Shown here one piece after another: positions 3,872 to 21,735 of a stretch of DNA of 64,000 nt. Under the pieces are notes generated by a model. The model was not told the DNA's origin. It saw only the letters and a program-made list of their open reading frames with translations, and made no database searches. The position numbers were made by a program, and so were the translations under genes. Positions within the stretch are counted from its first letter, which is position 1. Each line of letters opens with the position of its first letter. Origin of the DNA: Escherichia phage 04086; the sequence record OR842557. The stretch is one strand, 5' to 3'.

Positions 3872-4588
3872 TTATTGAGGCTTCATTTTGCAGTTATCGA
3901 AATGCCAACGATTCATATTACCGGAATTCCCTTGTTTACCACAATGAGGGCATTCTACCTTCTTTTCTGTTTTTTTGCGCCCGTTAGGATTTTCCTTACA
4001 AAAAACTTTATGAGACGCAATAACACAGGATTTTCCTGAAAGGCCACAGAATTCACATTCCACAATTTTATAGACCATGTTTTCTAGGCCTTTCTTTATT
4101 TTTAATTTTCGCTCTTCAGATATAGAGCGGTCCACTTTATTAGGGCCTTTAGGGCAGTTATCGAAATGCCATCTGTTCATATTGCCTACCAATCCGGTTT
4201 TGCCGCAGTGTGGACATGTAACTCTAGGCTTTTTTAAAGCGGAAATTGACATTTTCTTTCTGGTTTCTTCCGAGAATTCTTTATCCTTTTGGACTTCTGA
4301 ATTCTTACGACGAAGCCATCCAAATAATTTATTTTTAGACCTATCAGCTTTTGGTGAGCTAACTGTCATCATTCTTGCTGCATAGACTAAGGATGCGTTA
4401 TCTGGATGGATTTTAACTAACAACTGATGAGCCAAGTAATGTTCTTCAGGTGTTAAGTCTACCAAGTTTAAAGCGTCATCCGTCCCACCCATGCATTGTG
4501 GTATAATGTGATGACGTTCTTTATAGGTAGTTAAATTTCTATTAACTGCTCGTTGAATAAGCTTTTCGTATATTGATTTATAATTCAT
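3872..4588 (-). CDS. freestanding HNH homing endonuclease with zinc-finger-like repeats
   Basis: HNH core ERHHIIPQCMGG..N..EEH; CPHCGK..GNMNRWHFDNC occurs twice with a degenerate CxxC copy between; antisense to flanking early genes; first ATG at 4588 preceded by AAGGAT. Confidence 0.8.
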   Translation of the reverse strand: MNYKSIYEKLIQRAVNRNLTTYKERHHIIPQCMGGTDDALNLVDLTPEEHYLAHQLLVKIHPDNASLVYAARMMTVSSPKADRSKNKLFGWLRRKNSEVQKDKEFSEETRKKMSISALKKPRVTCPHCGKTGLVGNMNRWHFDNCPKGPNKVDRSISEERKLKIKKGLENMVYKIVECEFCGLSGKSCVIASHKVFCKENPNGRKKTEKKVECPHCGKQGNSGNMNRWHFDNCKMKPQ

Positions 4589-4624
4589 TATCAAATCCTT
4601 ATTTGATACAGCGACCGATAAAGA

Positions 4625-4632
4625 TATTTATA
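4625..4632 (-). promoter_or_regulatory. T4-type late promoter TATAAATA upstream of HNH gene
   Basis: exact TATAAATA on minus strand ~37 nt upstream of HNH start. Confidence 0.5.
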
Positions 4633-4826
4633 TGGCTTCTAATTTTATAACAGGCCAGCATTTGTTGGCCGCTCCGGAAATAAAGAGATATGTTTTAGTT
4701 AACAACTTCTCCGGTGACGAACACCTTGTTACTGAAGATTATCTCCGAAATGCTTTTACGTCAGAGTATGATAAAATCATGTCGAACAGGAACCCTGCCT
4801 GGTTCGTTTATGAATACTTTGATTAA
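4632..4826 (+). CDS. hypothetical protein (64 aa), 45.2-like position
   Basis: ORF between 46 and rpbA/45 slot. Confidence 0.5.
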   Translation: MASNFITGQHLLAAPEIKRYVLVNNFSGDEHLVTEDYLRNAFTSEYDKIMSNRNPAWFVYEYFD

Positions 4827-4888
4827 ACGTTAAGTGCTTTAAAATATTGATTTATAATACATCTACCAACCAAATGAGAGAAAATATT

Positions 4889-5302
4889 ATGTTTGCTAAC
4901 GCTATTACTGTTAAAGATATCCAAGTTAAAACCATTCGTACCGATTCCAACCCGCACAATCAAAATCGTATTCGTAAATCATGGGTACTGAATATTGATA
5001 CCAACTCTGCACGTCGTCTGCAGTCTCTTCCACAAGAAACTAAGTTCATGCTCTACGGTATCATTGATAACGACGTATCCGATAAGTGGGTAGAAATTAT
5101 GCGTCGCCATTATAATGATTCACTGGCCGCAGGTGCTAAACTGGTTATCGACCGTGATGGTTCTGAACGTCTCGAAGATGATTATTGCGTAGATTTTGAC
5201 GAACAGTTGCTTGAAGCCGGTGCTATTGTTGCTTCCCAGATTCCAGAGTATATTGAATCTCTGCCTGAATCCATTCGTAAACAAATGATCGTTATTGCTT
5301 AA
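4889..5302 (+). CDS. rpbA: probable RNA polymerase-binding protein RpbA
   Basis: ~137-aa ORF immediately upstream of gene 45 (synteny with T4 rpbA); start taken at MFANAIT. Confidence 0.5.
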   Translation: MFANAITVKDIQVKTIRTDSNPHNQNRIRKSWVLNIDTNSARRLQSLPQETKFMLYGIIDNDVSDKWVEIMRRHYNDSLAAGAKLVIDRDGSERLEDDYCVDFDEQLLEAGAIVASQIPEYIESLPESIRKQMIVIA

Positions 5303-5326
5303 TTTTTGACTTGATAAGGAAACATT

Positions 5327-6239
5327 ATGAAATTCTCTAAAGAAACTCTGAACATTCTGAAAAACTTCTCCAGTATTAACCCAGGTATCATGCTTAAGCC
5401 TGGTAACACTATTCTAACTCGTTCAGTAACGGGTGCAAGTTATGGTGAAGCTACTGTAAGCGATACCTTTGATATCGAAGCCGCAATCTATGATTTGAAC
5501 GGCTTCTTAAGTATTCTGTCATTGGTATCTGATAGTGCTGAAGTTTCGGTAAGTGAAGACCAAACCACCTTAATTATTAAAGACCAACGTTCAACTATTA
5601 AATGGCCTATTGCCGACCCAAGTACAATCGCATTCCCAAGCAAAGCTATTCCATTCCCGGTGGCTGAAGTTATTTTTGACCTTAAAGCCGAAGATTACCA
5701 ACAGTTGATGCGTGTGTCCTCTGGATTGAGTATTGATACATTTGCTATCACTGTAGACAACGGTAAAATTGTAATCAATGGCTACAAACAAGTTGATGAT
5801 AAGGACCTGGCACGTCCATTGTATTCCTTAGTGGNGCACAATTGCATTCCCAAGCAAAGCTATTCCGTTCCCGGTGGCTGAAGTTATTTTTGACCTTAAA
5901 GCCGAAGATTACCAACAGTTGATGCGTGTGTCCTCTGGATTGAGTATTGATACATTTGCTATCACTGTAGACAACGGTAAAATTGTAATCAATGGCTACA
6001 AACAAGTTGATGATAAGGACCTGGCACGTCCATTGTATTCCTTAGTGGTTGCAGACCATGATGGTCCTGAATTCAAATTCATTATCAACAAAACCAATAT
6101 GAAAATGATGCCTGCTGATTACCATGTATTGCTATGGGCTCGTGGTGAAGGTCAGGACGCTCGTTTCGCAGCCAAGTTTGAAGGTTCACAAGCTTCTTAT
6201 GTATTGGCTATGGAAGCAGGCTCAAGCCACTCGTTCTAA
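5327..6239 (+). CDS. 45: sliding clamp gp45
   Basis: 228-aa class, conserved order 45-44-62-regA-43; contains N-junction duplication at 5835. Confidence 0.9.
5622..6048 (+). repeat. N-flanked near-identical duplication (N at 5835), likely artefact
   Basis: ~210 bp of gene 45 repeated with mismatches. Confidence 0.7.
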
Positions 6240-6245
6240 AGCATA

Positions 6246-6274
6246 GGGAGGAGATTCCTCCCTTGGAGTATAAT
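6246..6274 (+). promoter_or_regulatory. GC hairpin followed by TTGGAGTATAAT (promoter-like -10)
   Basis: GGGAGGA-gat-TCCTCCC stem then TTGGAGTATAAT; same 12-mer after the hairpin upstream of gene 43. Confidence 0.4.
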
Positions 6275-6300
6275 GTAAAAACAAACCTGAGGAAATTAAT

Positions 6301-7260
6301 ATGCTTACAGTAAACAATAATGAATTCATGTGGGAACAGAAATATCGTCCAGGTACTTTATCTGAGTGTATTCTGCCGGCGCATGATAAAGAAACCCTCC
6401 AAGCCATTGTTAATAAGGGCCTAATCCCTAACATTATCCTAGTCTCTGCTTCACCAGGCACAGGTAAAACTACCGTAGCTAAAGCATTGTGTGCTGATAC
6501 AAATTCAGATATGCTGTTTGTTAACGGTTCTGACTGCCGTATTGATTTCGTTCGTAATGAACTTACTCGTTTTGCATCTTCAAAATCTATCGAAGGTAAA
6601 CGTAAGGTAATTGTTATCGACGAATTCGACCGTGCCGGTGTTGCTGAAGCTCAACGTCACCTTCGTTCGTTCTTAGAAGCCTATTCCTCAAACTGTTCTG
6701 TAATTATTACAGCAAACAATATTGATGGTATTATCGGCCCACTTCAATCCCGTTGTCGCGTTATTAAATTTGGTGAAGCCACTCCAGCCGACCAAACATC
6801 CATGATGAAAGAAATGATTCATCGTGCTGTAGCAATCTGTAAAAACGAAAATATCGAAGTCGAAGACCTTAAAGTTATTGCTGCTTTAGTTAAACAAAAC
6901 TTTCCTGACTTCCGTAAAACAGTTAACCAACTGGACCGTTACTCATCCAGTGGTAAAATAGATACAGGCATTTTGAGTATTGTAATGAATACCAATTCGC
7001 CTATTGATGAAGTAGTGGCTGCCCTGAAAGATAAAAACTTTAAAGAACTCCGGGCATTAGCTCCACGTCACGTCAATGACTATTCCAACTTTATTATGTC
7101 ACTGGCTAACGAACTCTATGGTAAATTGCCTGGACCAAGCATTGTTAGAATGTACGAAATTGTCGGTGAAAATAACCAATACCACGGTATTGCGGCTAAC
7201 CCAGAAATTCACATGACTTATCTGTTCATCCAACTTGCTCTGGAGCTCCAATGGCTATAA
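6301..7260 (+). CDS. 44: clamp loader large subunit gp44 (AAA+)
   Basis: Walker A SPGTGKTT, Walker B VIVIDEFD; 319 aa. Confidence 0.92.
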   Translation: MLTVNNNEFMWEQKYRPGTLSECILPAHDKETLQAIVNKGLIPNIILVSASPGTGKTTVAKALCADTNSDMLFVNGSDCRIDFVRNELTRFASSKSIEGKRKVIVIDEFDRAGVAEAQRHLRSFLEAYSSNCSVIITANNIDGIIGPLQSRCRVIKFGEATPADQTSMMKEMIHRAVAICKNENIEVEDLKVIAALVKQNFPDFRKTVNQLDRYSSSGKIDTGILSIVMNTNSPIDEVVAALKDKNFKELRALAPRHVNDYSNFIMSLANELYGKLPGPSIVRMYEIVGENNQYHGIAANPEIHMTYLFIQLALELQWL

Positions 7261-7823
7261 GTCTTTTTGATGATGACGTTGAACTGAACGAACATGAAGT
7301 TGCTTGGAAACAACGTAACGATGCTGCTATTCAAGCCTTGGCCGATTCATTTAAAGAAAAGGCTGAAAACGAATTGTTTGCCATTATGAACGATATCACA
7401 TATGGTAAGAACCAACGTAACTTGGCTCAGTCGGAAAACTATAATCAATTTTGGCTCGATAATAGTTTGAGCCAACATGTGGATTGCATTATGCAAGCTG
7501 CAATGGTTAACTGTTTGAAACTTGATGACCAAAGTCATTTTAACTATCTTTTACACGCGGTTCCTAAGGGTAAGAGATTTGGTAAATGGGCTAAGGCCCA
7601 TGATGATGAAGTTAGTGTAGTTTTTATTACTCGTTTATTGATGAAATACCATTCAATTAATAATGATGACGCTTATCGTTATCTCGAGACTTATAAAATT
7701 AAAGGCCATCTTCCTGCAGTGCTTAAGAAGATGAAAGGGTTGGTTACGGACGAATTCCTTAAATCCGTAACCAAAAATGTTAAAGAACAAAAAGACTTGA
7801 AAAAGAAAGCATTGGAATGGTAA
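7251..7823 (+). CDS. 62: clamp loader small subunit gp62
   Basis: overlaps gene 44 end; ~190 aa; synteny. Confidence 0.85.
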   Translation: MAISLFDDDVELNEHEVAWKQRNDAAIQALADSFKEKAENELFAIMNDITYGKNQRNLAQSENYNQFWLDNSLSQHVDCIMQAAMVNCLKLDDQSHFNYLLHAVPKGKRFGKWAKAHDDEVSVVFITRLLMKYHSINNDDAYRYLETYKIKGHLPAVLKKMKGLVTDEFLKSVTKNVKEQKDLKKKALEW

Positions 7824-8193: not shown

Positions 8194-8400
8194 ATGAGTT
8201 CAATAACCCAACTTCAAGTATCCGATATGGGTGGGATTAAAATTCCTGCTCCTAGTTGGATTAATCTTCCAATTGACGAACAGATACAGCATCAAGTTAA
8301 ATTGGCTTTATCCGAAAGTCAAGAACCACGTGCTATTATGGTCTTCACATATGATAAAGACCGTCATCCTCAAATGCAACGTCAGGTTATTGAAATTTAA
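8194..8400 (+). CDS. hypothetical protein (68 aa) in regA-43 intergenic region
   Basis: ORF only; no recognisable motifs. Confidence 0.3.
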   Translation: MSSITQLQVSDMGGIKIPAPSWINLPIDEQIQHQVKLALSESQEPRAIMVFTYDKDRHPQMQRQVIEI

Positions 8401-8403
8401 GCA

Positions 8404-8434
8404 AAGGGACTTCGGTCCCTTTTTGGAGTATAAT
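8404..8434 (+). terminator. hairpin + T-run followed by TTGGAGTATAAT (terminator and/or gene 43 operator/promoter)
   Basis: AAGGGAC-TTCG-GTCCCTT then TTTT then TTGGAGTATAAT, ~50 nt upstream of gene 43 ATG. Confidence 0.5.
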
Positions 8435-8482
8435 AATTCATCAACAAACAAAAGACAATCACTCGTCTATAAAGGAAATGAA

Positions 8483-11194
8483 ATGCAAGAATTCTATTTG
8501 ACAGTCGAACAAATCGGTGATAATATTCTCGAACGTTACATCGATAAAAATGGTAACGAACGTAGTCGTGAAGTTCCATACAAGCCTACAATGTTTATGC
8601 ATGCTAATCCAGAGCAAGCCGTAAAATACATTGATATCTATGGTAAGGGTTGTGTTAAGAAAGAATTCGACTCTATGCGTGATGCATCCCAATGGATGAA
8701 ACGTATGGATGATATGGGCCTCGAAGCCCTGGGTATGGACGACTATAAATTAGCCTATTTGTCTGATACCTATCGTAAAGAAATCAAATATGATTCTTCT
8801 AAGATTCGTATTGCTAACTTCGACATCGAGGTAACATCTCCTGATGGATTCCCTGAACCAGCTCAGGCTAAACATCCTATCGATGCCATTACCCACTACG
8901 ACTCGATTGACGATAAATTCTATGTATTCGACCTTTTAGTTTCGCCTTATGGTACTGTTGAAGAGTGGTCGATTAAAATCGCTGAGAAACTCCAAGACGA
9001 AGGTGGTGACGAAGTTCCACAGGAAATCATTGACAAAATCGTTTATCTTCCGTTTAATTCTGAAGAAGAAATGATGCTTGAGTATCTGAATTTCTGGCAA
9101 CAGAAAACTCCTGTGATTTTGACTGGATGGAACGTTGAATCATTTGACGTGCCGTACGTTTATAACCGTCTGAAAAATCTGTTCGGTGAGAACACTGCTA
9201 AGCGATTAAGCCCACATCGTAAAACTCGTGTTAAAGTTATCGAGAACATGTACGGTGCTCGTGAAATCATTACTTTGTTCGGCATCTCTGTTCTGGATTA
9301 TATCGACCTCTATAAAAAATTCAGCTTCACCAACCAGCCTTCTTATTCTCTGGATTATGTTTCTGAATATGAATTGAAAGTAGGTAAGTTGAAATATGAT
9401 GGTCCAATCTCCAAGTTACGTGAGACGAACCACCAACGATATATTTCCTATAATATTATCGACGTATATCGTGTAGTGCAGATTGATATGAAACGCCAGT
9501 TCATTCTTCTGAGTTTGGACATGGGTTATTATGCTAAGATGCAGATTCAGTCGGTGTTTAGTCCAATTAAGACTTGGGACGCTATTATCTTTAATAGCCT
9601 TAAAGAGCAAGGCAAGGTAATTCCACAAGCTCGTTCACACGTGGTTCAACCTTATCCTGGTGCTTTCGTTAAGGAACCTATTCCTAACGCTTACAAATAT
9701 GTAATGAGTTTCGACCTTACATCTCTGTACCCGAGTATCATTCGACAAGTGAATATAAGCCCAGAGACCATCGCAGGGACATTCGCTAACGCACCGATAC
9801 ATGAATATATTGCCGGAACAGCTCCGCGTCCTAGCGACGTCTACAGTTGCTCTCCTAACGGCATGATGTACTATAAAGACCGCGATGGTGTGATTCCTAC
9901 AGAAATCACTAAGGTGTTCTTACAACGTAAAGAACATAAAGGTTATATGCTTGCAGCTCAACGTAATGGTGAGTTAATTAAAGAAGCATTAGAAAATCCT
10001 AATCTCTCGGCTGATAGTCCACTGGATATCGATTATCGTTTTGACTTCTCTGACGAAATCAAAGCCAAGATTAAAACGCTGTCAGCACCTTCTTTAAGAG
10101 AAATGTTGTTCAGAGCTGAACGTACCGAAGTTGCAGGTATGACTGCTCAGATTAACCGTAAGTTGCTTATCAACTCCCTTTATGGTGCACTTGGTAACGT
10201 ATGGTTCCGTTATTACGACCTCAGGAACGCAACTGCAATCACACTGTTTGGTCAAATGGCCCTCCAATGGATTGAACGTAAGGTTAACGAATATCTGAAT
10301 AGCGTGTGTAAGACTGAAAATCAGAAGTTCGTGCTCTATGGTGATACTGACTCCATTTATGTTAAGGCGGATGCAATCATCAATAAAGTAGGCGAAGACA
10401 AATTCCGTGATACTAACCACTGGGTTGACTTCTTAGATAAATTTGCACGTGAACGTATGGAACCGGCTATTGATGCAGGCTTCCGTGAGATGTGCGAGTA
10501 CATGAACAACAAACAGCACTTGATGTTCATGGACCGAGAAGCTATCGCAGGTCCTCCACTTGGTTCTAAAGGTCTTGGTGGATTCTGGACAGGTAAGAAA
10601 CGTTATGCACTGAACGTTTGGGACATGGAAGGTACTCGTTATGCCGAACCGCACTTGAAAATCATGGGCCTCGAAACTCAGAAATCAAGTACACCTAAAG
10701 CAGTTCAGAAAGCTCTGAAGGAATGTATCCGTCGTATGCTTCAGGAAGGTGAGGCATCTTTGCAAGAATATTTCAAACAGTTTAATAAGGAATTTAACGA
10801 ACTCAACTATGTAAGCATTGCAGCAGTATCCAGTGCTAACAACATCGAGAAATATAATGAAGGTGGATTCCCGGGTTCTAAATGTCCATACCACATCAAA
10901 GGTTGCTTAGCTTACATGCGTGCTTCTGCAGGTGATTTGACTATGCCTCGTATCGTTGATGGTGAAAAGGTATATGTACTGCCACTTAAAGAAGGCAACC
11001 CATTCGGTGAAGCATGTATGGCATGGCCGTCAGGTATTGAACTCCCGATTCAGATTCGTGACCAAGTCCTCCGTTGGATGGACTACAACGTACTGTTCCA
11101 AAAGACCTTTATCAAACCTCTGACCGGTTTTACCGAGTCTGCTAAAATCGACTACGAGAAAAAAGCAACATTATTTGACATGTTCGACTTTTAA
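8483..11194 (+). CDS. 43: DNA polymerase gp43 (family B)
   Basis: exo I FDIE, DLTSLYPS, KLLINSLYG, YGDTDS; 903 aa; start at MQEFYL with AAAGGA RBS (ORF-track 5' extension rejected). Confidence 0.95.
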   Translation: MQEFYLTVEQIGDNILERYIDKNGNERSREVPYKPTMFMHANPEQAVKYIDIYGKGCVKKEFDSMRDASQWMKRMDDMGLEALGMDDYKLAYLSDTYRKEIKYDSSKIRIANFDIEVTSPDGFPEPAQAKHPIDAITHYDSIDDKFYVFDLLVSPYGTVEEWSIKIAEKLQDEGGDEVPQEIIDKIVYLPFNSEEEMMLEYLNFWQQKTPVILTGWNVESFDVPYVYNRLKNLFGENTAKRLSPHRKTRVKVIENMYGAREIITLFGISVLDYIDLYKKFSFTNQPSYSLDYVSEYELKVGKLKYDGPISKLRETNHQRYISYNIIDVYRVVQIDMKRQFILLSLDMGYYAKMQIQSVFSPIKTWDAIIFNSLKEQGKVIPQARSHVVQPYPGAFVKEPIPNAYKYVMSFDLTSLYPSIIRQVNISPETIAGTFANAPIHEYIAGTAPRPSDVYSCSPNGMMYYKDRDGVIPTEITKVFLQRKEHKGYMLAAQRNGELIKEALENPNLSADSPLDIDYRFDFSDEIKAKIKTLSAPSLREMLFRAERTEVAGMTAQINRKLLINSLYGALGNVWFRYYDLRNATAITLFGQMALQWIERKVNEYLNSVCKTENQKFVLYGDTDSIYVKADAIINKVGEDKFRDTNHWVDFLDKFARERMEPAIDAGFREMCEYMNNKQHLMFMDREAIAGPPLGSKGLGGFWTGKKRYALNVWDMEGTRYAEPHLKIMGLETQKSSTPKAVQKALKECIRRMLQEGEASLQEYFKQFNKEFNELNYVSIAAVSSANNIEKYNEGGFPGSKCPYHIKGCLAYMRASAGDLTMPRIVDGEKVYVLPLKEGNPFGEACMAWPSGIELPIQIRDQVLRWMDYNVLFQKTFIKPLTGFTESAKIDYEKKATLFDMFDF

Positions 11195-11196
11195 GT

Positions 11197-11239
11197 GTTT
11201 ACATACCACAAGGAACGTGGTAGTATCCTTCCTATCAAC
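11197..11239 (+). promoter_or_regulatory. early promoter (GTTTAC -35, TAGTAT -10, downstream CCTATCAAC box)
   Basis: sigma70-like hexamers; member of repeated promoter family. Confidence 0.6.
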
Positions 11240-11256
11240 TACATGAGGAAATTACA

Positions 11257-11493
11257 ATGGAAGCTTTAATCGTTAGTGCTGGTGTTTTAGGATTCGGTTC
11301 TCTGGTTATTATGTTCATCGGTTACTTTTTACCATGGATTCTGGCTCTTCTGCGAGGCACTCGTAGTAATGTAGGAATTTTCTTCCTTAATCTCCTGTTA
11401 GGCTGGACGATGATTGGTTGGGTAGTGGCTTTAATCTGGGCTATCGTCGCTGAACGTAAATCAAACGCACAAATCATTATTGTTAAACAATGA
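11257..11493 (+). CDS. imm: probable superinfection immunity membrane protein Imm
   Basis: 78-aa two-TM protein with LLGWT..GW..AL.WA motif; adjacent to gene 43 as in T4. Confidence 0.55.
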   Translation: MEALIVSAGVLGFGSLVIMFIGYFLPWILALLRGTRSNVGIFFLNLLLGWTMIGWVVALIWAIVAERKSNAQIIIVKQ

Positions 11494-11627
11494 AAATAAT
11501 TGTTTTATTTCTTATAATGGCTGCCTTTACCGTTTATTGGGCAGTGGCAATTCCACCAATGATTCCGACACTAATCATCGGATGGATTATTCTTATAGCA
11601 CAAATTAAGTATAACTGTTTTAATTGA
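11490..11627 (+). CDS. small hydrophobic membrane peptide (45 aa)
   Basis: ATGA overlap with imm stop; entirely hydrophobic; below ORF-track cutoff. Confidence 0.35.
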   Translation: MKIIVLFLIMAAFTVYWAVAIPPMIPTLIIGWIILIAQIKYNCFN

Positions 11628-11634
11628 GGATATT

Positions 11635-12135
11635 ATGAAAAAGTTAATTATCGCAATGAGTATGCTCCTATCAGGTTGCGCGGTCCAATATGGTGATGCA
11701 GTTTCGGCTGATGAAGTTGGTAAAGCTCGTATCGCAGCTGAACAGAAACAATTCGATGGCGAAATGAAATTCCGTGCCGGTTCTGGACTTGTGTATACCC
11801 GAGCTAATAATCAATGCGGTAATAACTGTGCAAAATATGCTCAACGAGAAATTGAATTCCAACGTGAACAAGAGTCCAAGCGTGAAGCGGTACTAGCCAA
11901 ACACCAGGCAGAAATGAAGCGCCAAGATGATTTGTACAAAAAGCAGAAACTGTATGCGATGTGCGTAAACCATATCAATCTACAGATTTCCATCCATGAG
12001 GCTCGTTATTACGAAATGCTCGAAACTGAGAGCTTCGGTAAAGCTCGTGATTATAAGAAACAAATCGATAAGCTCAAGACCAAAGTACCAGCGGCAATAG
12101 AACAGTGTATTGAAATCGGTAAAGATAAGATTTAA
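11635..12135 (+). CDS. predicted lipoprotein (166 aa)
   Basis: signal peptide with lipobox LLSGC; charged coiled-coil-like mature region. Confidence 0.6.
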   Translation: MKKLIIAMSMLLSGCAVQYGDAVSADEVGKARIAAEQKQFDGEMKFRAGSGLVYTRANNQCGNNCAKYAQREIEFQREQESKREAVLAKHQAEMKRQDDLYKKQKLYAMCVNHINLQISIHEARYYEMLETESFGKARDYKKQIDKLKTKVPAAIEQCIEIGKDKI

Positions 12136-12195
12136 GCAATACCAATTTATTAAAAATAGTGTATAATGTACCTACATTCACTTGAGGAACAGATA

Positions 12196-13869
12196 ATGAA
12201 AAAGGTTGTTATTTTAGGCGCGGGTCTTGGCTCACGGTTGTATCCAATTACCAACGAAATCCCGAAGGTACTGGTTAACTACAAACAACATACCGTATTA
12301 AAACATTTGTACGATTTGTATAGTAACCAATCGGATGAAATTATTCTGGTTATTCACAGCAAATTTAACGACCTCGTTAAAGGCTATATTAAATCCATTA
12401 ACATGATTAATAGTGATAAGCCTAAATTCACTATTCGTAACGTAGACGTGGCCAATGGTTCAGCTCATGCTATCGATTGCATTGCTGAAGATATCATTGG
12501 GCACAATGTCCTGTTTAACTGGTGTGACATCATTCCTGAAGGTCATAAGGTTGAGTGGGATAACGACTATTGCTATACTTACGGGACTGACTGTCGTTTT
12601 ACATTTGAAGAACCGTACTTGCGTGAAATTGGTACTGGCGGTGGTGTGGTTGGTTTGTATCAGGTGGCTAATTGGACAGGTTTTAACGGTCTGTATTATG
12701 GCGAAGACCTGGCCGACAACCTGGATTCAATGGTCCATTTGACTGAACGTAAGCTGGACTTTGTGGTTGATGTCGGTGACAAATTGAAACTGGCCAAGGC
12801 CCATGAAGATTCTGAAATTAACCGTGAATTTAATAAATTAGAGTTCACTGAGAATCTGGCTATTAAAGTACCAACTAACGAATTGGGTAAAGAAATCCAA
12901 TCTAAAGAAATCAATTGGTATAATTCTATTGATTCTGAATTCGTTCCTAGCATTGTAGACTTTGCTCCAGGCGAATTCATTAAAATGGAACGTATCTTTG
13001 GTCGTACCATGGCAGATGCCTACCGGTTTATGTCTAAAGAAACCAAAGTCCTCATGGTTTATAAGGTCATTAGTGCATTGCGTTCATTCGGCGGAACTAT
13101 CGATAACCCATCCGATGAGCAATGGTATTCTGATGTTAAGAAAGAAGTATTGGACAAGGTCCTTATTCGTAATGCTTCTATTGCCGGATTGATTGAAGGC
13201 TTTGCTCCACAGGGCATTACCCATGTTAACGACTTCAAGGTAGGCGACCCTGAAAAGCTTCTCCGTCACGCACTAGAAATTCTGTCTGAACATAAAGAAC
13301 CGTACCAACTTATTCATGGTGACCCGCACTACAGTAATATTATGCTGTCGGACGAAGGTGATATTAAAATCATCGACCCGCGTGGTTATTTTGGTAATAG
13401 TTCTAAAGGCCCTGCGATTTATGACGAAGCTAAGGTGCTTTATTCTATCGATGGTTATGACAAATTTAACTCTGACCCTCTATGGGGTGGTTTAACTCGT
13501 AACGGGACCCGTGTATTCGTTGATATTGAAAAGGTTATGCCTTTAGATGATATTCCAATGTGTACATTTAAGCACAAGCTCTGGATTGCTGTTATCTGGA
13601 TGGCATTGGCAGGTTACTTTAAAAATAACCCTCTGAAAGCTCTGGGTGCTTATTACAACGGTCTATATCAACTGAGTGTGCTGCTTAAGCGGCATCCTCG
13701 TAAGCGTAAGCTTATTACAGGTGAATTTGTCGATGAAGTTCGTGACCCTATTACGGCTCAAATTATCACTCGTTGTCCTGATAAGTGGGTTTTGCTTGAC
13801 CAGGAAACTGGTGTAAAATATAAACCTACAGGTTCTACTGAACTCCACAAACAATGGAAGAAAATTTAA
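12196..13869 (+). CDS. bifunctional nucleotidyltransferase / APH-like (anomeric sugar or alcohol) kinase
   Basis: N-terminus VVILGAGLGSRLYPITNEIPKVLV (GxGxRL..PK nucleotidyltransferase signature); C-terminus HGDPHYSNIM + IIDPRGYFG (Brenner motif of APH/choline-kinase fold); start at MKKVVIL with GAGGAA RBS (track start 12166 sits inside TATAAT). Confidence 0.75.
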   Translation: MKKVVILGAGLGSRLYPITNEIPKVLVNYKQHTVLKHLYDLYSNQSDEIILVIHSKFNDLVKGYIKSINMINSDKPKFTIRNVDVANGSAHAIDCIAEDIIGHNVLFNWCDIIPEGHKVEWDNDYCYTYGTDCRFTFEEPYLREIGTGGGVVGLYQVANWTGFNGLYYGEDLADNLDSMVHLTERKLDFVVDVGDKLKLAKAHEDSEINREFNKLEFTENLAIKVPTNELGKEIQSKEINWYNSIDSEFVPSIVDFAPGEFIKMERIFGRTMADAYRFMSKETKVLMVYKVISALRSFGGTIDNPSDEQWYSDVKKEVLDKVLIRNASIAGLIEGFAPQGITHVNDFKVGDPEKLLRHALEILSEHKEPYQLIHGDPHYSNIMLSDEGDIKIIDPRGYFGNSSKGPAIYDEAKVLYSIDGYDKFNSDPLWGGLTRNGTRVFVDIEKVMPLDDIPMCTFKHKLWIAVIWMALAGYFKNNPLKALGAYYNGLYQLSVLLKRHPRKRKLITGEFVDEVRDPITAQIITRCPDKWVLLDQETGVKYKPTGSTELHKQWKKI

Positions 13870-14228
13870 TGCATCTGTGTTTTGATATCGATAATACCAT
13901 TACTCACTGGCAAGATGACCGTGATTACGAAAACTTTAAACCGGACACCGAAATGGTGTCCATGATTAATAAGCTTTATGACGAAGGTCACGAGATTACA
14001 TTGTTCACTGCTCGTGGTATGACTTCATGTGGCCCTGGTCGAATCTTGGTTGAAGTAGTTCCTGCATTGGTTAAGAACCTTGAAAAGATCGGATTGAAAT
14101 ATCATAATCTGCTTACACATAAGCCGAGTTATACTTTTATCATCGATGACCGAGCAATCCGTCCTGACCATTTTAAAGAAATGGTTCGTGAAGGAACTCT
14201 TGAAACCTATAAGGCATATCATCCGTGA
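13869..14228 (+). CDS. HAD-superfamily phosphatase (small)
   Basis: motif I FDIDNTIT near N-terminus, LFTAR, IIDDR; start overlaps upstream stop (TAATG). Confidence 0.7.
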   Translation: MHLCFDIDNTITHWQDDRDYENFKPDTEMVSMINKLYDEGHEITLFTARGMTSCGPGRILVEVVPALVKNLEKIGLKYHNLLTHKPSYTFIIDDRAIRPDHFKEMVREGTLETYKAYHP

Positions 14229-14761
14229 ACCCAAAAATCATTGTTATCGACGGCCCGGATAATTCCGGGAAGTCTACTTTAATTGAATCACTTTTATCTG
14301 ATAAGAAATATCGTCTTATTGATTTCCCTAAAAAGATTAATGGCAAATGCATTTCATTAGGGACTGATAATGACAAGGCTTTAGTCGAGACGTTGTATAA
14401 GTTTTTAGACCCTAATTTCGTTTACATCCTTGACCGTGGTTATCCAAGTAATATAGTTTACTCGGGATTCCTTCGTGGTGAAATGGACCCTTATGTAGAA
14501 CTAGCAGATTGGATTGATTTCAAAAAAGAATTCAATATCATTGAGATTATTTTAACCCGTAATCCACTGGATAAAGACTTCGAAGACGACCTTATTAAAT
14601 TAACCAAAGATGAGTTCAACTTAACTATCCAAAAATATGAAGACTGTTTTAAAAATGTTTTTAAAGTTTTAAACCATGACGGATATAATAACTTGCTTAA
14701 CGTCGATATGGTAGAATTAAAACGTCTGAATGAATATATTGAAAATAAGGTGAATAAATGA
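14225..14761 (+). CDS. thymidylate-kinase-like P-loop (d)NMP kinase
   Basis: P-loop IDGPDNSGKST and DRGYPSNIVY (TMK DRY-like); GTG start overlapping upstream stop. Confidence 0.65.
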   Translation: MNPKIIVIDGPDNSGKSTLIESLLSDKKYRLIDFPKKINGKCISLGTDNDKALVETLYKFLDPNFVYILDRGYPSNIVYSGFLRGEMDPYVELADWIDFKKEFNIIEIILTRNPLDKDFEDDLIKLTKDEFNLTIQKYEDCFKNVFKVLNHDGYNNLLNVDMVELKRLNEYIENKVNK

Positions 14762-15456
14762 AACACATTACCGCTGTTAGTTTTGAAAACGCGTTTAAGC
14801 AAATGAACGAAGAAATCCTGGAAGCTCCACAGTTTGCAGTTGATTCTCGTATCGGCCGTTGTTATGAAATCGGTTCTGCTTCGGTAGAAGTACTGGATGC
14901 AAGCACCTATAAATTCACCGACCCTCGTATTAATCGTATCAACTATGATTATGCCGAATCTTTCTGGAAGTTTATGATTTCCGGTGGTACTGATGCCGCC
15001 GAAGCATTTAAGGAATACCCTAATGTTGCTAAGTTCATTGATAAGCCGAAAAGTGACGTATTGCCTGCAAACTTCAACACTTTCTATGGACCTCGAATTG
15101 TGGCCCAACTCCCAGCCCTACTTAAAGAGCTTAAAGAAAAGCCTAACTCGAGACGAGTTGTGTTCCAAATTCTCCAAGAACAAGACCAAGCCCTCCTTGA
15201 TTCTGACGAATCCTTAGAATATCCGTGTACCGATTCGGTAACATATTATATTCGTGATGGACGTCTGTATGCACACACTCATATGCGTTCACAGAACTGT
15301 GCTATCGTTATGCAGCTGGATTTCTATCTGCAGGGTAAACTGATGGCCTTTATTGCTGAACAGTGTGGTGTTGGTCTGGGTACGTATTCCCATACTATGG
15401 TTAGTGCACATGTATTTGAACGTGATTTTAACTACGTTCGAGGATTCCTGAAATGA
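14758..15456 (+). CDS. 42: thymidylate-synthase-fold pyrimidine hydroxymethylase (gene 42-like, divergent)
   Basis: PNSRR, catalytic Cys in EYPCTD, HMRSQN...QLD with Asp at the cytosine-specifying position; syntenic with T4 gene 42. Confidence 0.6.
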   Translation: MKHITAVSFENAFKQMNEEILEAPQFAVDSRIGRCYEIGSASVEVLDASTYKFTDPRINRINYDYAESFWKFMISGGTDAAEAFKEYPNVAKFIDKPKSDVLPANFNTFYGPRIVAQLPALLKELKEKPNSRRVVFQILQEQDQALLDSDESLEYPCTDSVTYYIRDGRLYAHTHMRSQNCAIVMQLDFYLQGKLMAFIAEQCGVGLGTYSHTMVSAHVFERDFNYVRGFLK

Positions 15457-16346
15457 GTTTGTTTATCGTTCCTATTTTCAGTATGCGTAGTTACGAAACA
15501 GGTGAATATGCCGTCCTTAAGGACGGCAATTTTCAACTCCATTTAAACCGTGCTTGCCCAGGTGATTATCTGGCTTATCCTAGAAATTCGAGCGATATCA
15601 AAGAATGTATTGAATTATTTCCTGAACTGAATTTCGTGCCGCTTTGGTATAAAGAAAATGCTTATGAGACCCGTAAACATTTTTGGTCCGAAAATGAGTT
15701 TGTCGTTGATTCGTTAATCGAATACTATGACTGCTCGGGATTAGTAACCGATATCACTGGTTATGATGGTGCTCAGACTGTACAATTCAACTTTAACATT
15801 ACAATGGACCCTGAAGTTCCTCGTTATTACATCGATGAGTTTATTGATACCGACGTGTCTTCAGTTGAACGTTCGATTTATACTACAGTCTTGAACCAAT
15901 GTCAGAAAGACGTCCTGGTGTCACGAGGTGTGTCCTCTGATAAGATTTTTGTAGACCAAAAGGTAATTAATCCGGCAGTAATTGAGCGTTACTCTGAAGG
16001 TCTAGCGCCTATTAAAATTGATGGTATTTTCCACCCATTCCGTATTTCGGATAAGTGTTATCAATTCGAAAGAGTTGTAGACCAAGCTGCGGCTGAAGGT
16101 GCTCGTCTTTATATCACCGACCCGAATGATTCGTTTAAACGTGAAGACTATCGTCCTGATGTAGAGATTATTAAATTCAAACCGAGTAAGGTTGAATATT
16201 ATCAGATTCTGAAATCAAGACCCCATATCATTTATCATGAGAACCCTGGTTTAGTATTCCATCCTGGTCTAGCTGAATTCATTTATTTCGGTGCCCATAT
16301 CCATTCCGAGCACGAAATGCCAAGTTATGAGGACGTGGTCCTTTAA
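15453..16346 (+). CDS. unknown protein in beta-gt syntenic slot (candidate DNA-modifying transferase)
   Basis: 297-aa ORF between TS-like gene and uvsX; no similarity to T4 beta-gt that I can recognise; function is inference from position. Confidence 0.55.
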   Translation: MSLFIVPIFSMRSYETGEYAVLKDGNFQLHLNRACPGDYLAYPRNSSDIKECIELFPELNFVPLWYKENAYETRKHFWSENEFVVDSLIEYYDCSGLVTDITGYDGAQTVQFNFNITMDPEVPRYYIDEFIDTDVSSVERSIYTTVLNQCQKDVLVSRGVSSDKIFVDQKVINPAVIERYSEGLAPIKIDGIFHPFRISDKCYQFERVVDQAAAEGARLYITDPNDSFKREDYRPDVEIIKFKPSKVEYYQILKSRPHIIYHENPGLVFHPGLAEFIYFGAHIHSEHEMPSYEDVVL

Positions 16347-16377
16347 CGCTGTAAATGTGAAGTGATATAATTACCCT
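16342..16377 (+). promoter_or_regulatory. uvsX promoter-like element containing GTGATATAATTACCCT
   Basis: perfect TATAAT; same 16-mer recurs upstream of gene 32. Confidence 0.45.
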
Positions 16378-16423
16378 ATCTTAAAACGTGAGTAAAATAT
16401 AATGATGCCTATGGAAAAATATA

Positions 16424-17596
16424 ATGTCTGATTTAAAATCCCGTTTGATTAAAGCTTCTACTTCTAAAATGACTGCCGACCTGACCAAATCTAAATTGTT
16501 TAATGGTCGTGACGAAGTTCCTACTCGTATCCCTATGCTGAATATTGCATTAGGTGGTGCGTTGAATGCAGGCTTACAATCAGGTTTGACAATCTTTGCT
16601 GCTCCATCTAAACACTTTAAAACGTTGTTTGGACTTACCATGGTTGCGGCATATATGAAGAAATATCCAGACGCAATTTGTTTGTTCTATGACTCTGAGT
16701 TCGGTGCTTCAGAATCTTATTTCCGTTCGATGGGTGTTGATTTGGAACGTGTGGTTCATACACCAATCCAGTCAGTCGAACAGCTGAAGGTTGATATGAC
16801 CAACCAGTTAGAAGAAATTACTCGTGGCGAAAAGGTTATTATCTTTATCGACTCCATTGGTAACACTGCTTCTAAGAAAGAAACCGAAGATGCTTTGAAC
16901 GAGAAAGTTGTAGGTGATATGACTCGTGCTAAGTCACTGAAATCTCTGTTCCGTATCGTAACACCTTATCTGACCATCAAGGATATCCCTTGCGTAGCAA
17001 TTAACCACACTGCTATGGAAATTGGTGGAATGTACCCTAAAGAGATTATGGGTGGCGGTACTGGTATTCTGTACTCTGCTTCTACCGTGTTCTTTATCTC
17101 TAAACGCCAAGTTAAAGATGGTACCGAGCTCACAGGTTACGACTTCACACTGAAGGCAGAGAAATCTCGTACGGTTAAAGAGAAATCAACGTTCCCTATC
17201 ACCGTTAACTTCGAAGGCGGCATTGACCCATTCAGTGGATTGCTTGAAATGGCTACTGATATCGGTTTTGTTGTGAAACCTAAAGCTGGTTGGTATAATC
17301 GTGCATTCCTTGACGAAACCACAGGTGAAATGGTTCAAGAAGAAAAAGCATGGCGTGCTAAAGCTACCGATTGTGTTGAGTTCTGGGGACCGCTGTTTAA
17401 ACATGCTCCGTTCCGTGAAGCAATCGAGAATAAGTATAAGCTTGGTGCAATTAATTCTATTAAAGAAGTTGACGATGCGGTAAATGACCTTATTAACTCT
17501 CGTGTCTCTAAGAACGTTGCTGTTAAATTAAGCGGAAATACCCAAAGCGCCGCTGATATCGAAAACGATTTAGAAGAGATGGATTTAGATGACTGA
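16424..17596 (+). CDS. uvsX: recombinase UvsX (RecA-like)
   Basis: 390 aa; RecA-fold ATPase motifs; strong similarity to T4 UvsX as recalled. Confidence 0.95.
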   Translation: MSDLKSRLIKASTSKMTADLTKSKLFNGRDEVPTRIPMLNIALGGALNAGLQSGLTIFAAPSKHFKTLFGLTMVAAYMKKYPDAICLFYDSEFGASESYFRSMGVDLERVVHTPIQSVEQLKVDMTNQLEEITRGEKVIIFIDSIGNTASKKETEDALNEKVVGDMTRAKSLKSLFRIVTPYLTIKDIPCVAINHTAMEIGGMYPKEIMGGGTGILYSASTVFFISKRQVKDGTELTGYDFTLKAEKSRTVKEKSTFPITVNFEGGIDPFSGLLEMATDIGFVVKPKAGWYNRAFLDETTGEMVQEEKAWRAKATDCVEFWGPLFKHAPFREAIENKYKLGAINSIKEVDDAVNDLINSRVSKNVAVKLSGNTQSAADIENDLEEMDLDD

Positions 17597-20582: not shown

Positions 20583-20876
20583 ATGAAAAAGTTATTAATC
20601 GCAGCAATCCTTACAGTAGCATCATGTGGCACGGCTCCAGTTACGGCTGGATTGGATAAAGACCTTTGTGAATGGTCTATGACCGCAGACCAAGAATCGG
20701 TTGAACATCAGATTTATGCTGATATCATGAACATCACTAAACGTGACCGTCCTGACATGGTTAAAGAAGTGTCCGACCAATTAGCTTCAACCGGTGTTAT
20801 GCAGTACAACTATGTTTTGTATTGTGACGCTAATTTCGATAACAAAAACATTGTTAAAGAGGTTACAGGTGAGTAA
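20583..20876 (+). CDS. predicted lipoprotein (97 aa)
   Basis: signal peptide with lipobox TVASC. Confidence 0.55.
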   Translation: MKKLLIAAILTVASCGTAPVTAGLDKDLCEWSMTADQESVEHQIYADIMNITKRDRPDMVKEVSDQLASTGVMQYNYVLYCDANFDNKNIVKEVTGE

Positions 20877-20877
20877 A

Positions 20878-21735
20878 ATGATTAACAGAACTTTGGTTAT
20901 TAAAAAGCTTCGTTGTAAAAATCCAAACGCACAAGCATACAGGATGTTTTGGAGCGACGACCATCAGTACCTAGGTTATTTTATTGTTGATAGCGACGAT
21001 AGAATTGTATTCGCTCATAAACTTCTTAACAGAGAATTAAACCATTGGCAAGAACTTATTACTGTTAAGTCTAAATTATTTTCGCTCAATGTAATGCACC
21101 AATTGGTTTATTTTTTCGCTGACGGGTTTCCGGACAAGGTTGAATTTGAAGGATTCGAATTTAAAGATATCCACCCGGACAACGAATTGAATGACGGCGT
21201 TAATATGGATATCCCTAGCAAGTATATCAAAAACAGTCTGTTGAAAANCGCGGTGAGGTCTAAATTATTTTCGTGCAATACAATGCACCAATTGGTTTAT
21301 TTTTTCGCTGAAGGTATTCCTGACAAGGTTGAGTTTGATGGATTCGAATTTAAAGACATCCTCCCAGACAACGAATTGAACGACCGCGTTAATATGGACA
21401 TCCCTAGCAAGTATATCAAAAACAGTCTGTTGAAAATTCTGGAAGCTCCAGTTTATTCAATTGACGACCAGATTTTTAATGNTACTGTTAAGTCTAAATT
21501 ATTTTCGCTCAATGTAATGCACCAATTGGTTTATTTTTTCGCTGACGGGTTTCCGGACAAGGTTGAATTTGAAGGATTCGAATTTAAAGATATCCACCCG
21601 GACAACGAATTGAATGACGGCGTTAATATGGATATCCCTAGCAAGTATATCAAAAACAGTCTGTTGAAAATTCTGGAAGCTCCAGTTTATTCAATTGACG
21701 ACCAGATTTTTAATGCCTTTATGAATCGAGGTTGA
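20878..21735 (+). CDS. hypothetical protein; apparent triple repeat is N-junction duplication
   Basis: start MINRTL overlapping upstream stop; three ~230-bp near-identical units separated by N at 21248 and 21481. Confidence 0.45.
   Translation: MINRTLVIKKLRCKNPNAQAYRMFWSDDHQYLGYFIVDSDDRIVFAHKLLNRELNHWQELITVKSKLFSLNVMHQLVYFFADGFPDKVEFEGFEFKDIHPDNELNDGVNMDIPSKYIKNSLLKXAVRSKLFSCNTMHQLVYFFAEGIPDKVEFDGFEFKDILPDNELNDRVNMDIPSKYIKNSLLKILEAPVYSIDDQIFNXTVKSKLFSLNVMHQLVYFFADGFPDKVEFEGFEFKDIHPDNELNDGVNMDIPSKYIKNSLLKILEAPVYSIDDQIFNAFMNRG
21060..21720 (+). repeat. N-flanked triplicated unit (N at 21248, 21481-21482), likely artefact
   Basis: three near-identical copies with scattered mismatches. Confidence 0.65.

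Follow-up and report, generated by a model that had tools for sequence, protein, structure and literature searches.

A 119-amino acid open reading frame of a T4-like coliphage is very probably, judging from sequence comparison, the Dhakavirus ortholog of AfhF from phage HY126, and it is predicted to encode a D-arabinofuranose-1,5-bisphosphate 5-phosphatase. The gene was found in a stretch of 64,000 nucleotides of phage DNA, analysed in full and referred to here as the window, which belongs to a Dhakavirus and is ~96-97% identical to the phages KIT01, Bp7 and QL01. The AfhF family, the structure 9iqw, the reaction and the role in DNA arabinosylation are already known (published 2025-2026). The homology, motifs, fold, synteny and co-occurrence described below were computed here, and the chemistry that we propose for the Dhakavirus is carried over from the literature on its orthologs.

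A minimal HAD phosphatase gene and its relatives

The gene lies on the plus strand at positions 13869 to 14228 and spans 360 nt, from ATG 13869-13871 to TGA 14226-14228. It encodes the protein MHLCFDIDNTITHW... (119 aa), and its translation from the window begins MHLCFDIDNTIT. The sequence across the junction with the preceding AfhE-like gene is AAAATTTAATGCATCTGTGTTTTGATATCGATAATACC. At this TTTAATG junction (13865 to 13871, plus strand) a single base is common to the stop codon TAA 13867-13869 and the start codon ATG 13869-13871. An earlier note on this DNA had described both the 119-aa frame and its TAATG overlap with the upstream stop, and both were confirmed in the window sequence. Such a one-base overlap of stop and start suggests that translation of the two genes may be coupled. 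Among the junctions compared, TAATG is also found in Bp7, HY126 and DLP3; in PM2 the overlap reads ATGA, and in Marfa a 63-nt spacer separates the two genes. An alternative in-frame ATG at 13854, which is the RefSeq choice for Bp7, would give a protein of 124 aa. It has no Shine-Dalgarno-like sequence, whereas ATG 13869 is preceded at 7 nt by GGAAGA, and the position of 13869 is the start in many homologs.

The Pfam match to the HAD superfamily was weak (Hydrolase_3, E = 0.0077, under the gathering score), and we therefore based the assignment as an AfhF-type minimal, capless HAD phosphatase on motifs, the structure model and homology to solved structures. The HAD motifs are readily placed, with D6 and D8 in motif I, T47 in motif II, K85 in motif III, and D93 and D94 in motif IV. 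In an alignment of 45 sequences the residues D6, D8, T47, R49, G50, K85, D93 and D94 were invariant, and full-length homologs are present in 390 phage records. The AlphaFold2 model has a pLDDT of 92.9 and the fold of a capless HAD enzyme, so that the proposal of a HAD phosphatase, made originally from the aspartate pair of motif I, is borne out by conservation of that pair in the 45 homologs and by the predicted fold.

The top Foldseek match of the model was 9iqw (TM 0.87), a structure whose PDB title names the phage HY126 encoded 'D-arabinose 1,5-diphosphate phosphatase' AfhF. The phosphatase is 63% identical to HY126 AfhF across 119/119 residues (BLASTP 3e-63), with the same identity to the 9iqw sequence in phmmer (2.1e-52). 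The two proteins were reciprocal best matches and the sole significant ones in a comparison covering the window, the whole Bp7 genome and the HY126 locus. HY126 AfhF, whose homologs include RB69 gp51 and Acinetobacter phage DLP3 gp81, agrees with the Dhakavirus protein in all four HAD motifs and in the other family-invariant residues, and its gene likewise follows AfhE directly with a TAATG overlap. The N terminus of the Dhakavirus phosphatase is 7-9 residues shorter than those of the HY126, RB69 and DLP3 proteins. Together, the homologs, the invariant residues, the AlphaFold2 model and the recurrent junction establish that the ORF is a real gene and not a chance reading frame.

The nearest curated family is TIGR01689 (EcbF/BcbF 'capsule biosynthesis phosphatase'), whose members resemble the phosphatase in their minimal size of about 120-126 aa and in motif layout. 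The TIGR01689 model scored 52.1 bits (E = 5.8e-14), below its 162-bit cutoff; by sequence score the phosphatase is a sister group of this family, outside the subfamily, and the name 'capsule biosynthesis protein' on phage homologs is a transferred label. The nearest non-phage solved structure, 1xpj from Vibrio cholerae, is a protein of this TIGR01689 subfamily (phmmer 1.3e-11, Foldseek TM 0.70-0.74, 28-30% identity). The designation 'phosphoheptose isomerase' given by RefSeq and PHROG 1238 was rejected: the phosphatase has no SIS match, and both its fold and its motifs are those of a HAD enzyme. This label is a misannotation, possibly originating in HAD-SIS fusions such as P0090. Also discarded was a candidate second HAD gene at 23968-24409 of the window, where weak AfhF tblastn matches fell in a region that is a gp56-type dCTPase.

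The five-gene cassette between DNA polymerase and uvsX

The phosphatase gene is part of a cassette of five genes with overlapping junctions, situated between DNA polymerase and uvsX in the order AfhE-like enzyme, AfhF-like phosphatase, Tmk-like kinase, 5-hydroxy-dCMP synthase and DNA arabinosyltransferase. This gp43-uvsX location is common to RB69, HY126, DLP3, CHI14, Marfa and PM2. Further overlaps within the cassette are GTGA 14225-14228, ATGA 14758-14761 and ATGA 15453-15456. A scan for promoters and terminators across 11000-16600 returned no more sites than shuffled controls.

The first gene (12196 to 13869, plus strand) encodes a bifunctional AfhE-like enzyme of 557 aa, identified by Pfam, PHROG and HY126 homology. 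Its mechanical ORF begins at 12166 and comprises 567 aa. The start is probably 12196, as indicated by a GAGGA Shine-Dalgarno sequence 7 nt upstream and by the alignments to PHROG 4098 (6e-269, from residue 11) and to HY126 AfhE (43% identity full-length, from Met11). The N-terminal domain is a sugar-1-phosphate nucleotidyltransferase with the motif GAGLGSRLYPIT, and the C-terminal domain is an APH-type sugar kinase with the motifs HGDPHYSN and IIDPRGYFG in a six-way alignment. A PDB sequence search with the AfhE-like protein gave nothing useful. The Pfam domains (NTP_transferase 2.5e-8, APH 1.3e-5), together with the identity to HY126 AfhE, substantiate the kinase/nucleotidyltransferase that had been proposed upstream of the phosphatase. 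The two genes travel together: per-genus counts of AfhE-like and HAD genes in phage records are equal (e.g. Escherichia 176/176, Acinetobacter 57/57, Klebsiella 25/25), and the phosphatase gene lies directly 3' of the AfhE-like gene in six genera.

Downstream, at 14225 to 14761 on the plus strand, lies a thymidylate-kinase-like P-loop kinase of 178 aa (PHROG 761 'thymidylate kinase', 3e-39), whose GTG start overlaps the phosphatase stop within GTGA. It is 37% identical to its homolog in the HY126 cassette; its Pfam and NCBIfam kinase matches are weak, and a PDB sequence search gave nothing useful. The RB69 and DLP3 homologs are listed only as 'nucleotide kinase' (PMC13326640 Table 1). The fourth gene (14758 to 15456, plus strand) encodes a thymidylate-synthase-fold enzyme of 232 aa that by HY126 and PDB homology is predicted to be a flavin-dependent 5-hydroxy-dCMP synthase. 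It is about 79% identical to the HY126 protein and matches 9iqu and 9iqc with a phmmer E of 7e-125; the function has been shown experimentally for the RB69, DLP3 and HY126 homologs (PMC13326640). The fifth gene (15453 to 16346, plus strand) encodes a 297-aa homolog of the first cassette DNA arabinosyltransferase (RB69 gp46:47, DLP3 gp79). This protein is 66% identical to the syntenic HY126 protein and matches PHROG 3891 (7e-158), with zero matches in Pfam, NCBIfam and PDB sequence searches; its role as an arabinosyltransferase is predicted from synteny and from the structural comparisons in PMC13326640. The window also contains a gp56-type dCTPase fragment.

The HY126 cassette shares with that of the Dhakavirus the 5-hydroxy-dCMP synthase, the DNA arabinosyltransferase and the gp43-uvsX interval, and the two differ in several respects. 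The Dhakavirus cassette has neither an arabinose-5-phosphate isomerase nor a U32-like protein, and its genome has no second arabinosyltransferase. The Tmk-like gene comes right after the phosphatase in the Dhakavirus, but after the glycosyltransferase in the HY126-type cassette. The Dhakavirus AfhE-like enzyme belongs to a separate clade from HY126 AfhE, at about 45% identity. Among the six phages compared, the pathway is smallest in this cassette, which has one glycosyltransferase and no isomerase.

Predicted pathway and the order of its steps

Work on HY126, RB69 and DLP3 has established that the pathway yields arabinosyl-5-hydroxycytosine in DNA (PMC13326640). According to the passages of that article that cite He et al. 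(2026, Nat Chem Biol), AfhE adds a C1 phosphate to arabinose-5-phosphate, AfhF takes the 5-phosphate off arabinose-1,5-bisphosphate in a Mg2+-dependent reaction, and AfhE then converts arabinose-1-phosphate to UDP-arabinofuranose. Dhakaviruses are among the lineages listed as carrying the arabinosylation cluster (PMC13326640); a literature search for chemical analyses of Dhakavirus DNA returned genomic inferences only.

By analogy, the kinase domain of the Dhakavirus AfhE-like enzyme would add a phosphate to C1 of arabinose-5-phosphate, the resulting 1,5-bisphosphate would be hydrolysed by the phosphatase to arabinose-1-phosphate, and the nucleotidyltransferase domain would convert this product to UDP-arabinofuranose. 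The downstream glycosyltransferase would then transfer the sugar onto 5-hydroxycytosine of the phage DNA, which is expected to arise as 5-hydroxy-dCMP through the thymidylate-synthase homolog of the cassette. The arabinose-5-phosphate is probably supplied by the host isomerases KdsD and GutQ, since a phage isomerase is absent here. This scheme assumes that substrate specificity is the same as for the HY126 pair, whose AfhE is ~45% identical and in a separate clade, and it would lead to mono-arabinosylation only. We take the purpose of the cassette to be decoration of phage DNA with arabinosyl-5-hydroxycytosine, which shields it from host nucleases, and not synthesis of a cell-envelope sugar.

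The predicted sequence of reactions has the logic of the ADP-heptose pathway, where GmhB works with HldE: an anomeric kinase forms a sugar bisphosphate, GmhB as a small capless HAD enzyme cleaves off the distal phosphate, and the sugar-1-phosphate left behind is activated by a nucleotidyltransferase. GmhB is the D-glycero-D-manno-heptose 1,7-bisphosphate 7-phosphatase; it is about 60 residues longer, has a Zn-binding loop, and acts on a heptose whose product goes to LPS, not DNA. The GmhB structures 3l8h and 4pnh are among the Foldseek matches of our model (E about 2e-3 to 7e-3, TM about 0.5, 12-15% identity), and TIGR01662 (HAD-SF-IIIA) scored 21.3 bits, below its 44.6 cutoff. The phosphatase would thus work like GmhB without being a member of the GmhB/HAD-IIIA group. 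Distant relatives of the phosphatase have PfkB kinases and cytidylyltransferase-like genes as neighbours or form fusions with sugar-nucleotide enzymes, which fits a general logic of kinase, phosphatase and nucleotidyltransferase.

The earlier note had proposed a phosphate-position swap on a sugar, and this idea agrees with the title of the orthologous structure 9iqw and with the AfhE/AfhF chemistry as cited in PMC13326640. Of the analogies it offered to KdsC, GmhB and MupP, the GmhB logic holds; the logic of KdsC or MupP does not match the cited route, which runs via the 1,5-bisphosphate. Its example of removing a 5-phosphate before adding a 1-phosphate inverts the order given in the cited account, namely kinase first and phosphatase second. 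If the example were nevertheless correct, the HAD enzyme would convert arabinose-5-phosphate to free arabinose, which the kinase domain would then phosphorylate at C1. Sequence alone cannot tell the two orders apart, and in Table 1 of PMC13326640 the HAD homologs of RB69 and DLP3 carry the label 'dephosphorylates Araf5p to Ara', with 'phosphorylates Ara to Araf1p' for the kinase. In its running text, where it cites the HY126 reconstitution, that article has the kinase act before AfhF, with AfhF acting on the 1,5-bisphosphate. Given also that the PDB title of the ortholog names a 1,5-diphosphate phosphatase and that the PfkB-kinase and cytidylyltransferase contexts of distant relatives mirror the bisphosphate route of HldE and GmhB, we consider the phosphatase-first order very improbable.

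A function outside sugar metabolism is less probable still. The phosphatase might be a 5'(3')-deoxyribonucleotidase acting on the dCMP/5-hydroxy-dCMP pool, or a polynucleotide 3'-phosphatase like T4 PseT, whose phosphatase domain is likewise a phage-encoded capless HAD core of similar size. Its gene adjoins those of a Tmk-like kinase and a dCMP-modifying enzyme, it has a weak match to PHROG 415 'polynucleotide kinase' (3e-5), the AFDB neighbours of RB69 gp51 include one with a deoxyribonucleotidase annotation, and Foldseek relates the model to the phosphatase domain of T4 Pnkp. The similarity to PseT is however low (11-19% identity, TM about 0.5), and PseT, which is joined to a P-loop kinase in one protein, has the 3' ends of nucleic acids as its substrate. 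The phage already has its own PseT (Bp7 gp054), the characterised 63%-identical ortholog is a sugar-bisphosphate phosphatase, relatives are located within sugar-nucleotide clusters, and the gene co-occurs strictly with AfhE and not with nucleotide enzymes.

An isomerase-less lineage and its implications

In all hosts concerned, arabinose-5-phosphate for Kdo synthesis is made by KdsD/GutQ. No homolog of the phage arabinose-5-phosphate isomerase was found at E <= 1 in the window or the complete Bp7 genome, and neither the U32-like protein nor an RB69 gp3-type second arabinosyltransferase was found in the window or the whole Bp7 genome. The isomerase is present in HY126, RB69, DLP3 and CHI14, whereas the Marfa and PM2 loci also lack it. 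Phage records with the isomerase number 276, compared with 390 for the HAD phosphatase; the isomerase list has no Klebsiella or Proteus phages and about 39 fewer Escherichia records. The isomerase is accessory to the pathway and is not a trait of the AfhF enzyme. Dhaka-, Marfa- and Bragaviruses have no phage isomerase, and in every domain their AfhE shares only 44-49% identity with its counterparts in isomerase-encoding phages, whereas the DNA polymerases of the window and of HY126 are 84% identical. By these identities, the divergence of AfhE in the three groups does not track that of the phage backbone.

It is conceivable, though unlikely, that this divergence reflects a change of substrate; these phages would then differ from HY126 and RB69 either in relying entirely on the small arabinose-5-phosphate pool of the host Kdo pathway or in activating a different pentose phosphate. 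If the latter were true, 5-hydroxycytosine would carry a different sugar, and the phosphatase would remove the 5-phosphate from some other pentose 1,5-bisphosphate. The corresponding alternative, that the isomerase-less AfhE/AfhF pair activates another pentose phosphate that is abundant in the host, e.g. ribose-5-phosphate via ribose-1,5-bisphosphate, and that the DNA sugar is not arabinose, draws on the missing isomerase, on its smaller number of records and on the contrast between AfhE and DNA polymerase. Yet the split is not seen elsewhere in the cassette: the glycosyltransferase, which recognises the donor, is about equally similar to its HY126 (66%) and Marfa (68%) counterparts, and neither AfhF (63-69%) nor the 5-hydroxy-dCMP synthase (78%) divides by clade. 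With arabinose-5-phosphate produced through KdsD/GutQ in every host concerned, and with Dhakaviruses placed alongside arabinosylating clusters in PMC13326640, we regard another pentose as quite unlikely and retain arabinose-1,5-bisphosphate as the predicted substrate.

The assignment is of direct value for annotation. Hundreds of phage genomes name the phosphatase gene 'phosphoheptose isomerase', 'capsule biosynthesis protein' or 'polynucleotide kinase', and neighbouring genes in the same phages are named 'thymidylate synthase', 'GlmU' or 'hypothetical'. The isomerase-less cassette with its single glycosyltransferase could be a minimal set for reconstitution. If the phosphatase is AfhF as proposed, these coliphages, which are therapeutic candidates, are predicted to carry arabinosyl-5-hydroxycytosine DNA, a modification that affects restriction, sensitivity to CRISPR and type IV defence, and nanopore sequencing.

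The phosphatase gene and its cassette

Judged by the taxonomy of its nearest relatives, the window comes from a Dhakavirus, one of the T4-like coliphages. Over the 5.2 kb from 11200 to 16400 its identity is 97.3% to KIT01 and about 96% to each of Bp7, QL01 and WG01. The phosphatase ORF occupies 13869..14228 on the plus strand (360 nt, 119 aa, beginning MHLCFDIDNTITHW). Its ATG overlaps the preceding gene's TAA stop by one base (TTTAATG), the overlap that the earlier note had read as TAATG. An alternative in-frame ATG at 13854, the start chosen by RefSeq for the fully sequenced Dhakavirus Bp7, would give 124 aa and has no Shine-Dalgarno-like sequence upstream. GGAAGA lies 7 nt upstream of 13869, and the alignment places the start of many homologs at the equivalent position. 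Full-length homologs were found by tblastn in 390 phage records, and 2,297 relatives at E <= 1e-10 came from a profile search against 1.84 billion representative proteins. The phosphatase is a genuine, conserved gene.

It is the second of five closely packed genes between gp43, encoding DNA polymerase, and uvsX (16424). The upstream neighbor (12196-13869) encodes an N-terminal NTP_transferase domain and a C-terminal APH kinase domain, confirming the proposed kinase/nucleotidyltransferase. From Met11 on it is 43% identical to AfhE of HY126, which with RB69 and DLP3 has a published pathway for arabinosyl-5-hydroxycytosine DNA, and its motifs GAGLGSRLYPIT, HGDPHYSN and IIDPRGYFG are intact. This AfhE-like gene probably starts at ATG 12196: a Shine-Dalgarno sequence, GAGGA, lies upstream, and this start fits the alignments to HY126 and PHROG 4098; the mechanical ORF start at 12166 falls within a TATAAT hexamer (12161-12166). 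For gp43, the mechanical ORF (8231-11194) starts at GTG 8231, and the true start is ATG 8483 (MQEFYLTVEQ...), where other gp43 alignments begin, giving 903 aa.

Downstream lie a Tmk-like P-loop kinase (14225-14761), joined to the phosphatase stop by a GTGA overlap, and two genes that each begin with an ATGA overlap. These are a thymidylate-synthase homolog (14758-15456), 79% identical to the HY126 enzyme (PDB 9iqu/9iqc, E = 7e-125), and a 297-aa protein (15453-16346), which shares 66% identity with the HY126 protein that is syntenic with the first arabinosyltransferase. These gene overlaps suggest that translation of the cassette is coupled. The TAATG junction is the same in Bp7, HY126 and DLP3, while Proteus phage PM2 (Bragavirus) has ATGA. 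In Klebsiella phage Marfa (Marfavirus) the AfhE and HAD genes do not overlap and are separated instead by a 63-nt spacer (about 6938-7000 of the locus sequence); it holds a perfect 8-bp hairpin, GAGGAGGC-TTTA-GCCTCCTC, with a Shine-Dalgarno-like GAGGAGG within. The AfhE-like gene occurs in 368 records of the phage collection, and its counts equal those of the HAD gene for phages of Escherichia (176), Acinetobacter (57), Klebsiella (25), Shigella (15), Serratia (9), Enterobacter (9), Proteus (7) and Yersinia (6).

Elsewhere in the window, 24275-24616 encodes the C-terminal portion of a gp56-type dCTPase (dUTPase_2 match), its ORF call broken by an N at 24267; the enzyme is a member of the cytosine-replacement pathway, from which the 5-hydroxy-dCMP synthase receives its dCMP. 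Single Ns or short N runs at fourteen scattered sites break up several ORF calls (830-834, 1179, 1552, 5835, 21248, 21482, 22821-22823, 24267, 26501-26503, 26868, 34727, 40479-40481, 44361 and 45224). Two of them, 21248 and 21482, fall in ORF 20794-21735, in which a 189-234-nt unit is repeated in tandem about three times (repeat 21069-21715; 91-92% matches).

Correspondence to AfhF

The description of the protein as a minimal HAD enzyme held up. In a 45-sequence alignment of homologs, D6 and D8 of motif I (DxDxT), T47 (motif II), K85 (motif III) and D93/D94 (motif IV) were invariant, as were Y20, N34, L36, G40, R49, G50 and K77. The Pfam match, Hydrolase_3 at E = 0.0077, was under threshold and weak by itself. 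The AlphaFold2 model was confident (pLDDT 92.9, pTM 0.87), and DSSP assigned alternating strands and helices without a long insert. The top PDB sequence match (E = 2.1e-52, residues 2-119) and the top Foldseek match (63% identity, TM 0.87) were both 9iqw, titled 'phage HY126 encoded D-arabinose 1,5-diphosphate phosphatase AfhF'. Its sequence is that of the HY126 gene at 6980-7366 of the locus sequence, and its ungapped alignment with the window protein shows 63% identity. AfhF matched only the phosphatase ORF in searches of the window and the complete Bp7 genome, and in the reverse search the window protein matched only AfhF in the HY126 locus.

The next relative, the V. cholerae structural-genomics protein 1xpj, is 28-30% identical. 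The window protein scored 52 bits against TIGR01689 ('EcbF-BcbF capsule biosynthesis phosphatase'), the curated family of 1xpj, whose cutoff is 162. The T4 Pnkp phosphatase domain, GmhB and HisB-N were more remote fold matches (TM about 0.5, Foldseek). The window phosphatase belongs with an enzyme family for which a crystal structure and assays have already been published; homology, motifs, fold and synteny are demonstrated at this locus, and the chemistry is taken from the ortholog.

Proposed pathway and wider family

RB69 was initially believed to carry arabosyl-hydroxymethylcytosine, and the gp43-uvsX module was proposed as a UDP-arabinose producer (PMC6024577); a 2021 survey listed RB69p051 with 'phosphatase domain of polynucleotide kinase' (PMC8056088). 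Lee et al. (NAR 2026, PMC13326640) showed that the modified base is arabinosylated 5-hydroxycytosine, that the thymidylate-synthase homolog is a flavin-dependent 5-hydroxy-dCMP synthase, and that the sugar is transferred on DNA from UDP-Araf; they name Dhakaviruses as one of the lineages that have the syntenic cluster. In their summary of He et al., AfhE phosphorylates arabinose-5-P at C1, AfhF acts as a Mg2+-dependent phosphatase that turns Araf-1,5-P2 into Araf-1-P, and AfhE then makes UDP-arabinose. Table 1 of the same paper retains the older label 'dephosphorylates Araf5p to Ara', and therefore the step order rests on the HY126 reconstitution and the PDB title.

By analogy, the AfhE kinase domain would convert arabinose-5-P to arabinose-1,5-P2, and the window phosphatase would yield arabinose-1-P. 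Following standard HAD chemistry, D6 would act as nucleophile and D8 as acid/base, while T47 and K85 would bind phosphate and D93/D94 would bind Mg2+. The AfhE nucleotidyltransferase domain would then form UDP-Araf, and the 297-aa transferase would place the sugar onto 5-hydroxycytosine in DNA. The earlier note's interpretation was essentially right. It had proposed a GmhB-like phosphate-position swap on a sugar, which agrees with this pathway, but its example removed a phosphate before adding the 1-phosphate, opposite to the published order, and KdsC and MupP are looser parallels than GmhB. Nor do the observations it named as contrary apply, since both catalytic Asp residues are there and a sugar bisphosphate is the preferred substrate of the ortholog.

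The kinase/phosphatase/nucleotidyltransferase logic of HldE/GmhB recurs in the wider HAD family. More remote relatives, at 31-46% identity, were seen in cyanophages and metagenomic contigs beside PfkB sugar kinases, cytidylyltransferase-like nucleotidyltransferases, epimerases, transketolase-like genes and carbamoyltransferases, and some members carry a fused CTP_transf_like, CTP_transf_3, NeuB or SIS domain. At cyanophage P-SSM2 (locus sequence 3874-6472) and metagenomic loci, PfkB kinase and cytidylyltransferase-like genes flank the HAD relative, with cupins nearby; these clusters look like an uncharacterised sugar-nucleotide pathway of HldE/GmhB-like logic. Database names for the HAD protein are misleading ('phosphoheptose isomerase', 'capsule biosynthesis protein', 'polynucleotide kinase', 'haloacid dehydrogenase'), and the family's sugar contexts and fusions probably explain the spread of the first. 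Likewise AfhE appears as 'GlmU' or 'hypothetical', and the 5-hydroxy-dCMP synthase as 'thymidylate synthase' or 'dCMP hydroxymethylase'.

Phages lacking the isomerase

Neither the window nor the whole 168-kb Bp7 genome contained a homolog of the arabinose-5-P isomerase or of the U32-like protein (RB69 gp50 type). The isomerase was also absent from the Marfa and PM2 loci. It occurs in 276 phage records versus 390 for the HAD gene; Klebsiella and Proteus phages are absent from its records, and Escherichia phages number about 39 fewer. The second arabinosyltransferase (RB69 gp3; query RB69 locus sequence 2520-3620) likewise had no homolog in the 64-kb window or the Bp7 genome, which predicts mono- rather than poly-arabinosylated 5-hydroxycytosine. 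The Bp7 gp39-rIIA interval holds small ORFs only. The Tmk-like kinase is kept in every cassette compared, at just 37-45% identity between clades; its gene lies directly 3' of the phosphatase in the isomerase-less clade and after the glycosyltransferase in HY126, CHI14 and DLP3.

AfhE of Dhaka-, Marfa- and Bragavirus forms its own clade, 71-81% identical internally and 44-49% identical to HY126, CHI14 and DLP3, with the divergence even over all domains. In contrast, the DNA polymerases of the window and HY126 share 84% identity, and AfhE shows 59% identity between HY126 and DLP3, a phage of another subfamily. No comparable split was seen for AfhF (57-85%), the 5-hydroxy-dCMP synthase (70-85%) or the first transferase (43-69%). 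A change of sugar in the isomerase-less clade is possible but unlikely, as the conserved transferase speaks against it. The host Kdo pathway (KdsD/GutQ) is a source of arabinose-5-P. The simplest reading is that the isomerase-less phages would draw arabinose-5-P from this host pathway and attach a single arabinose.
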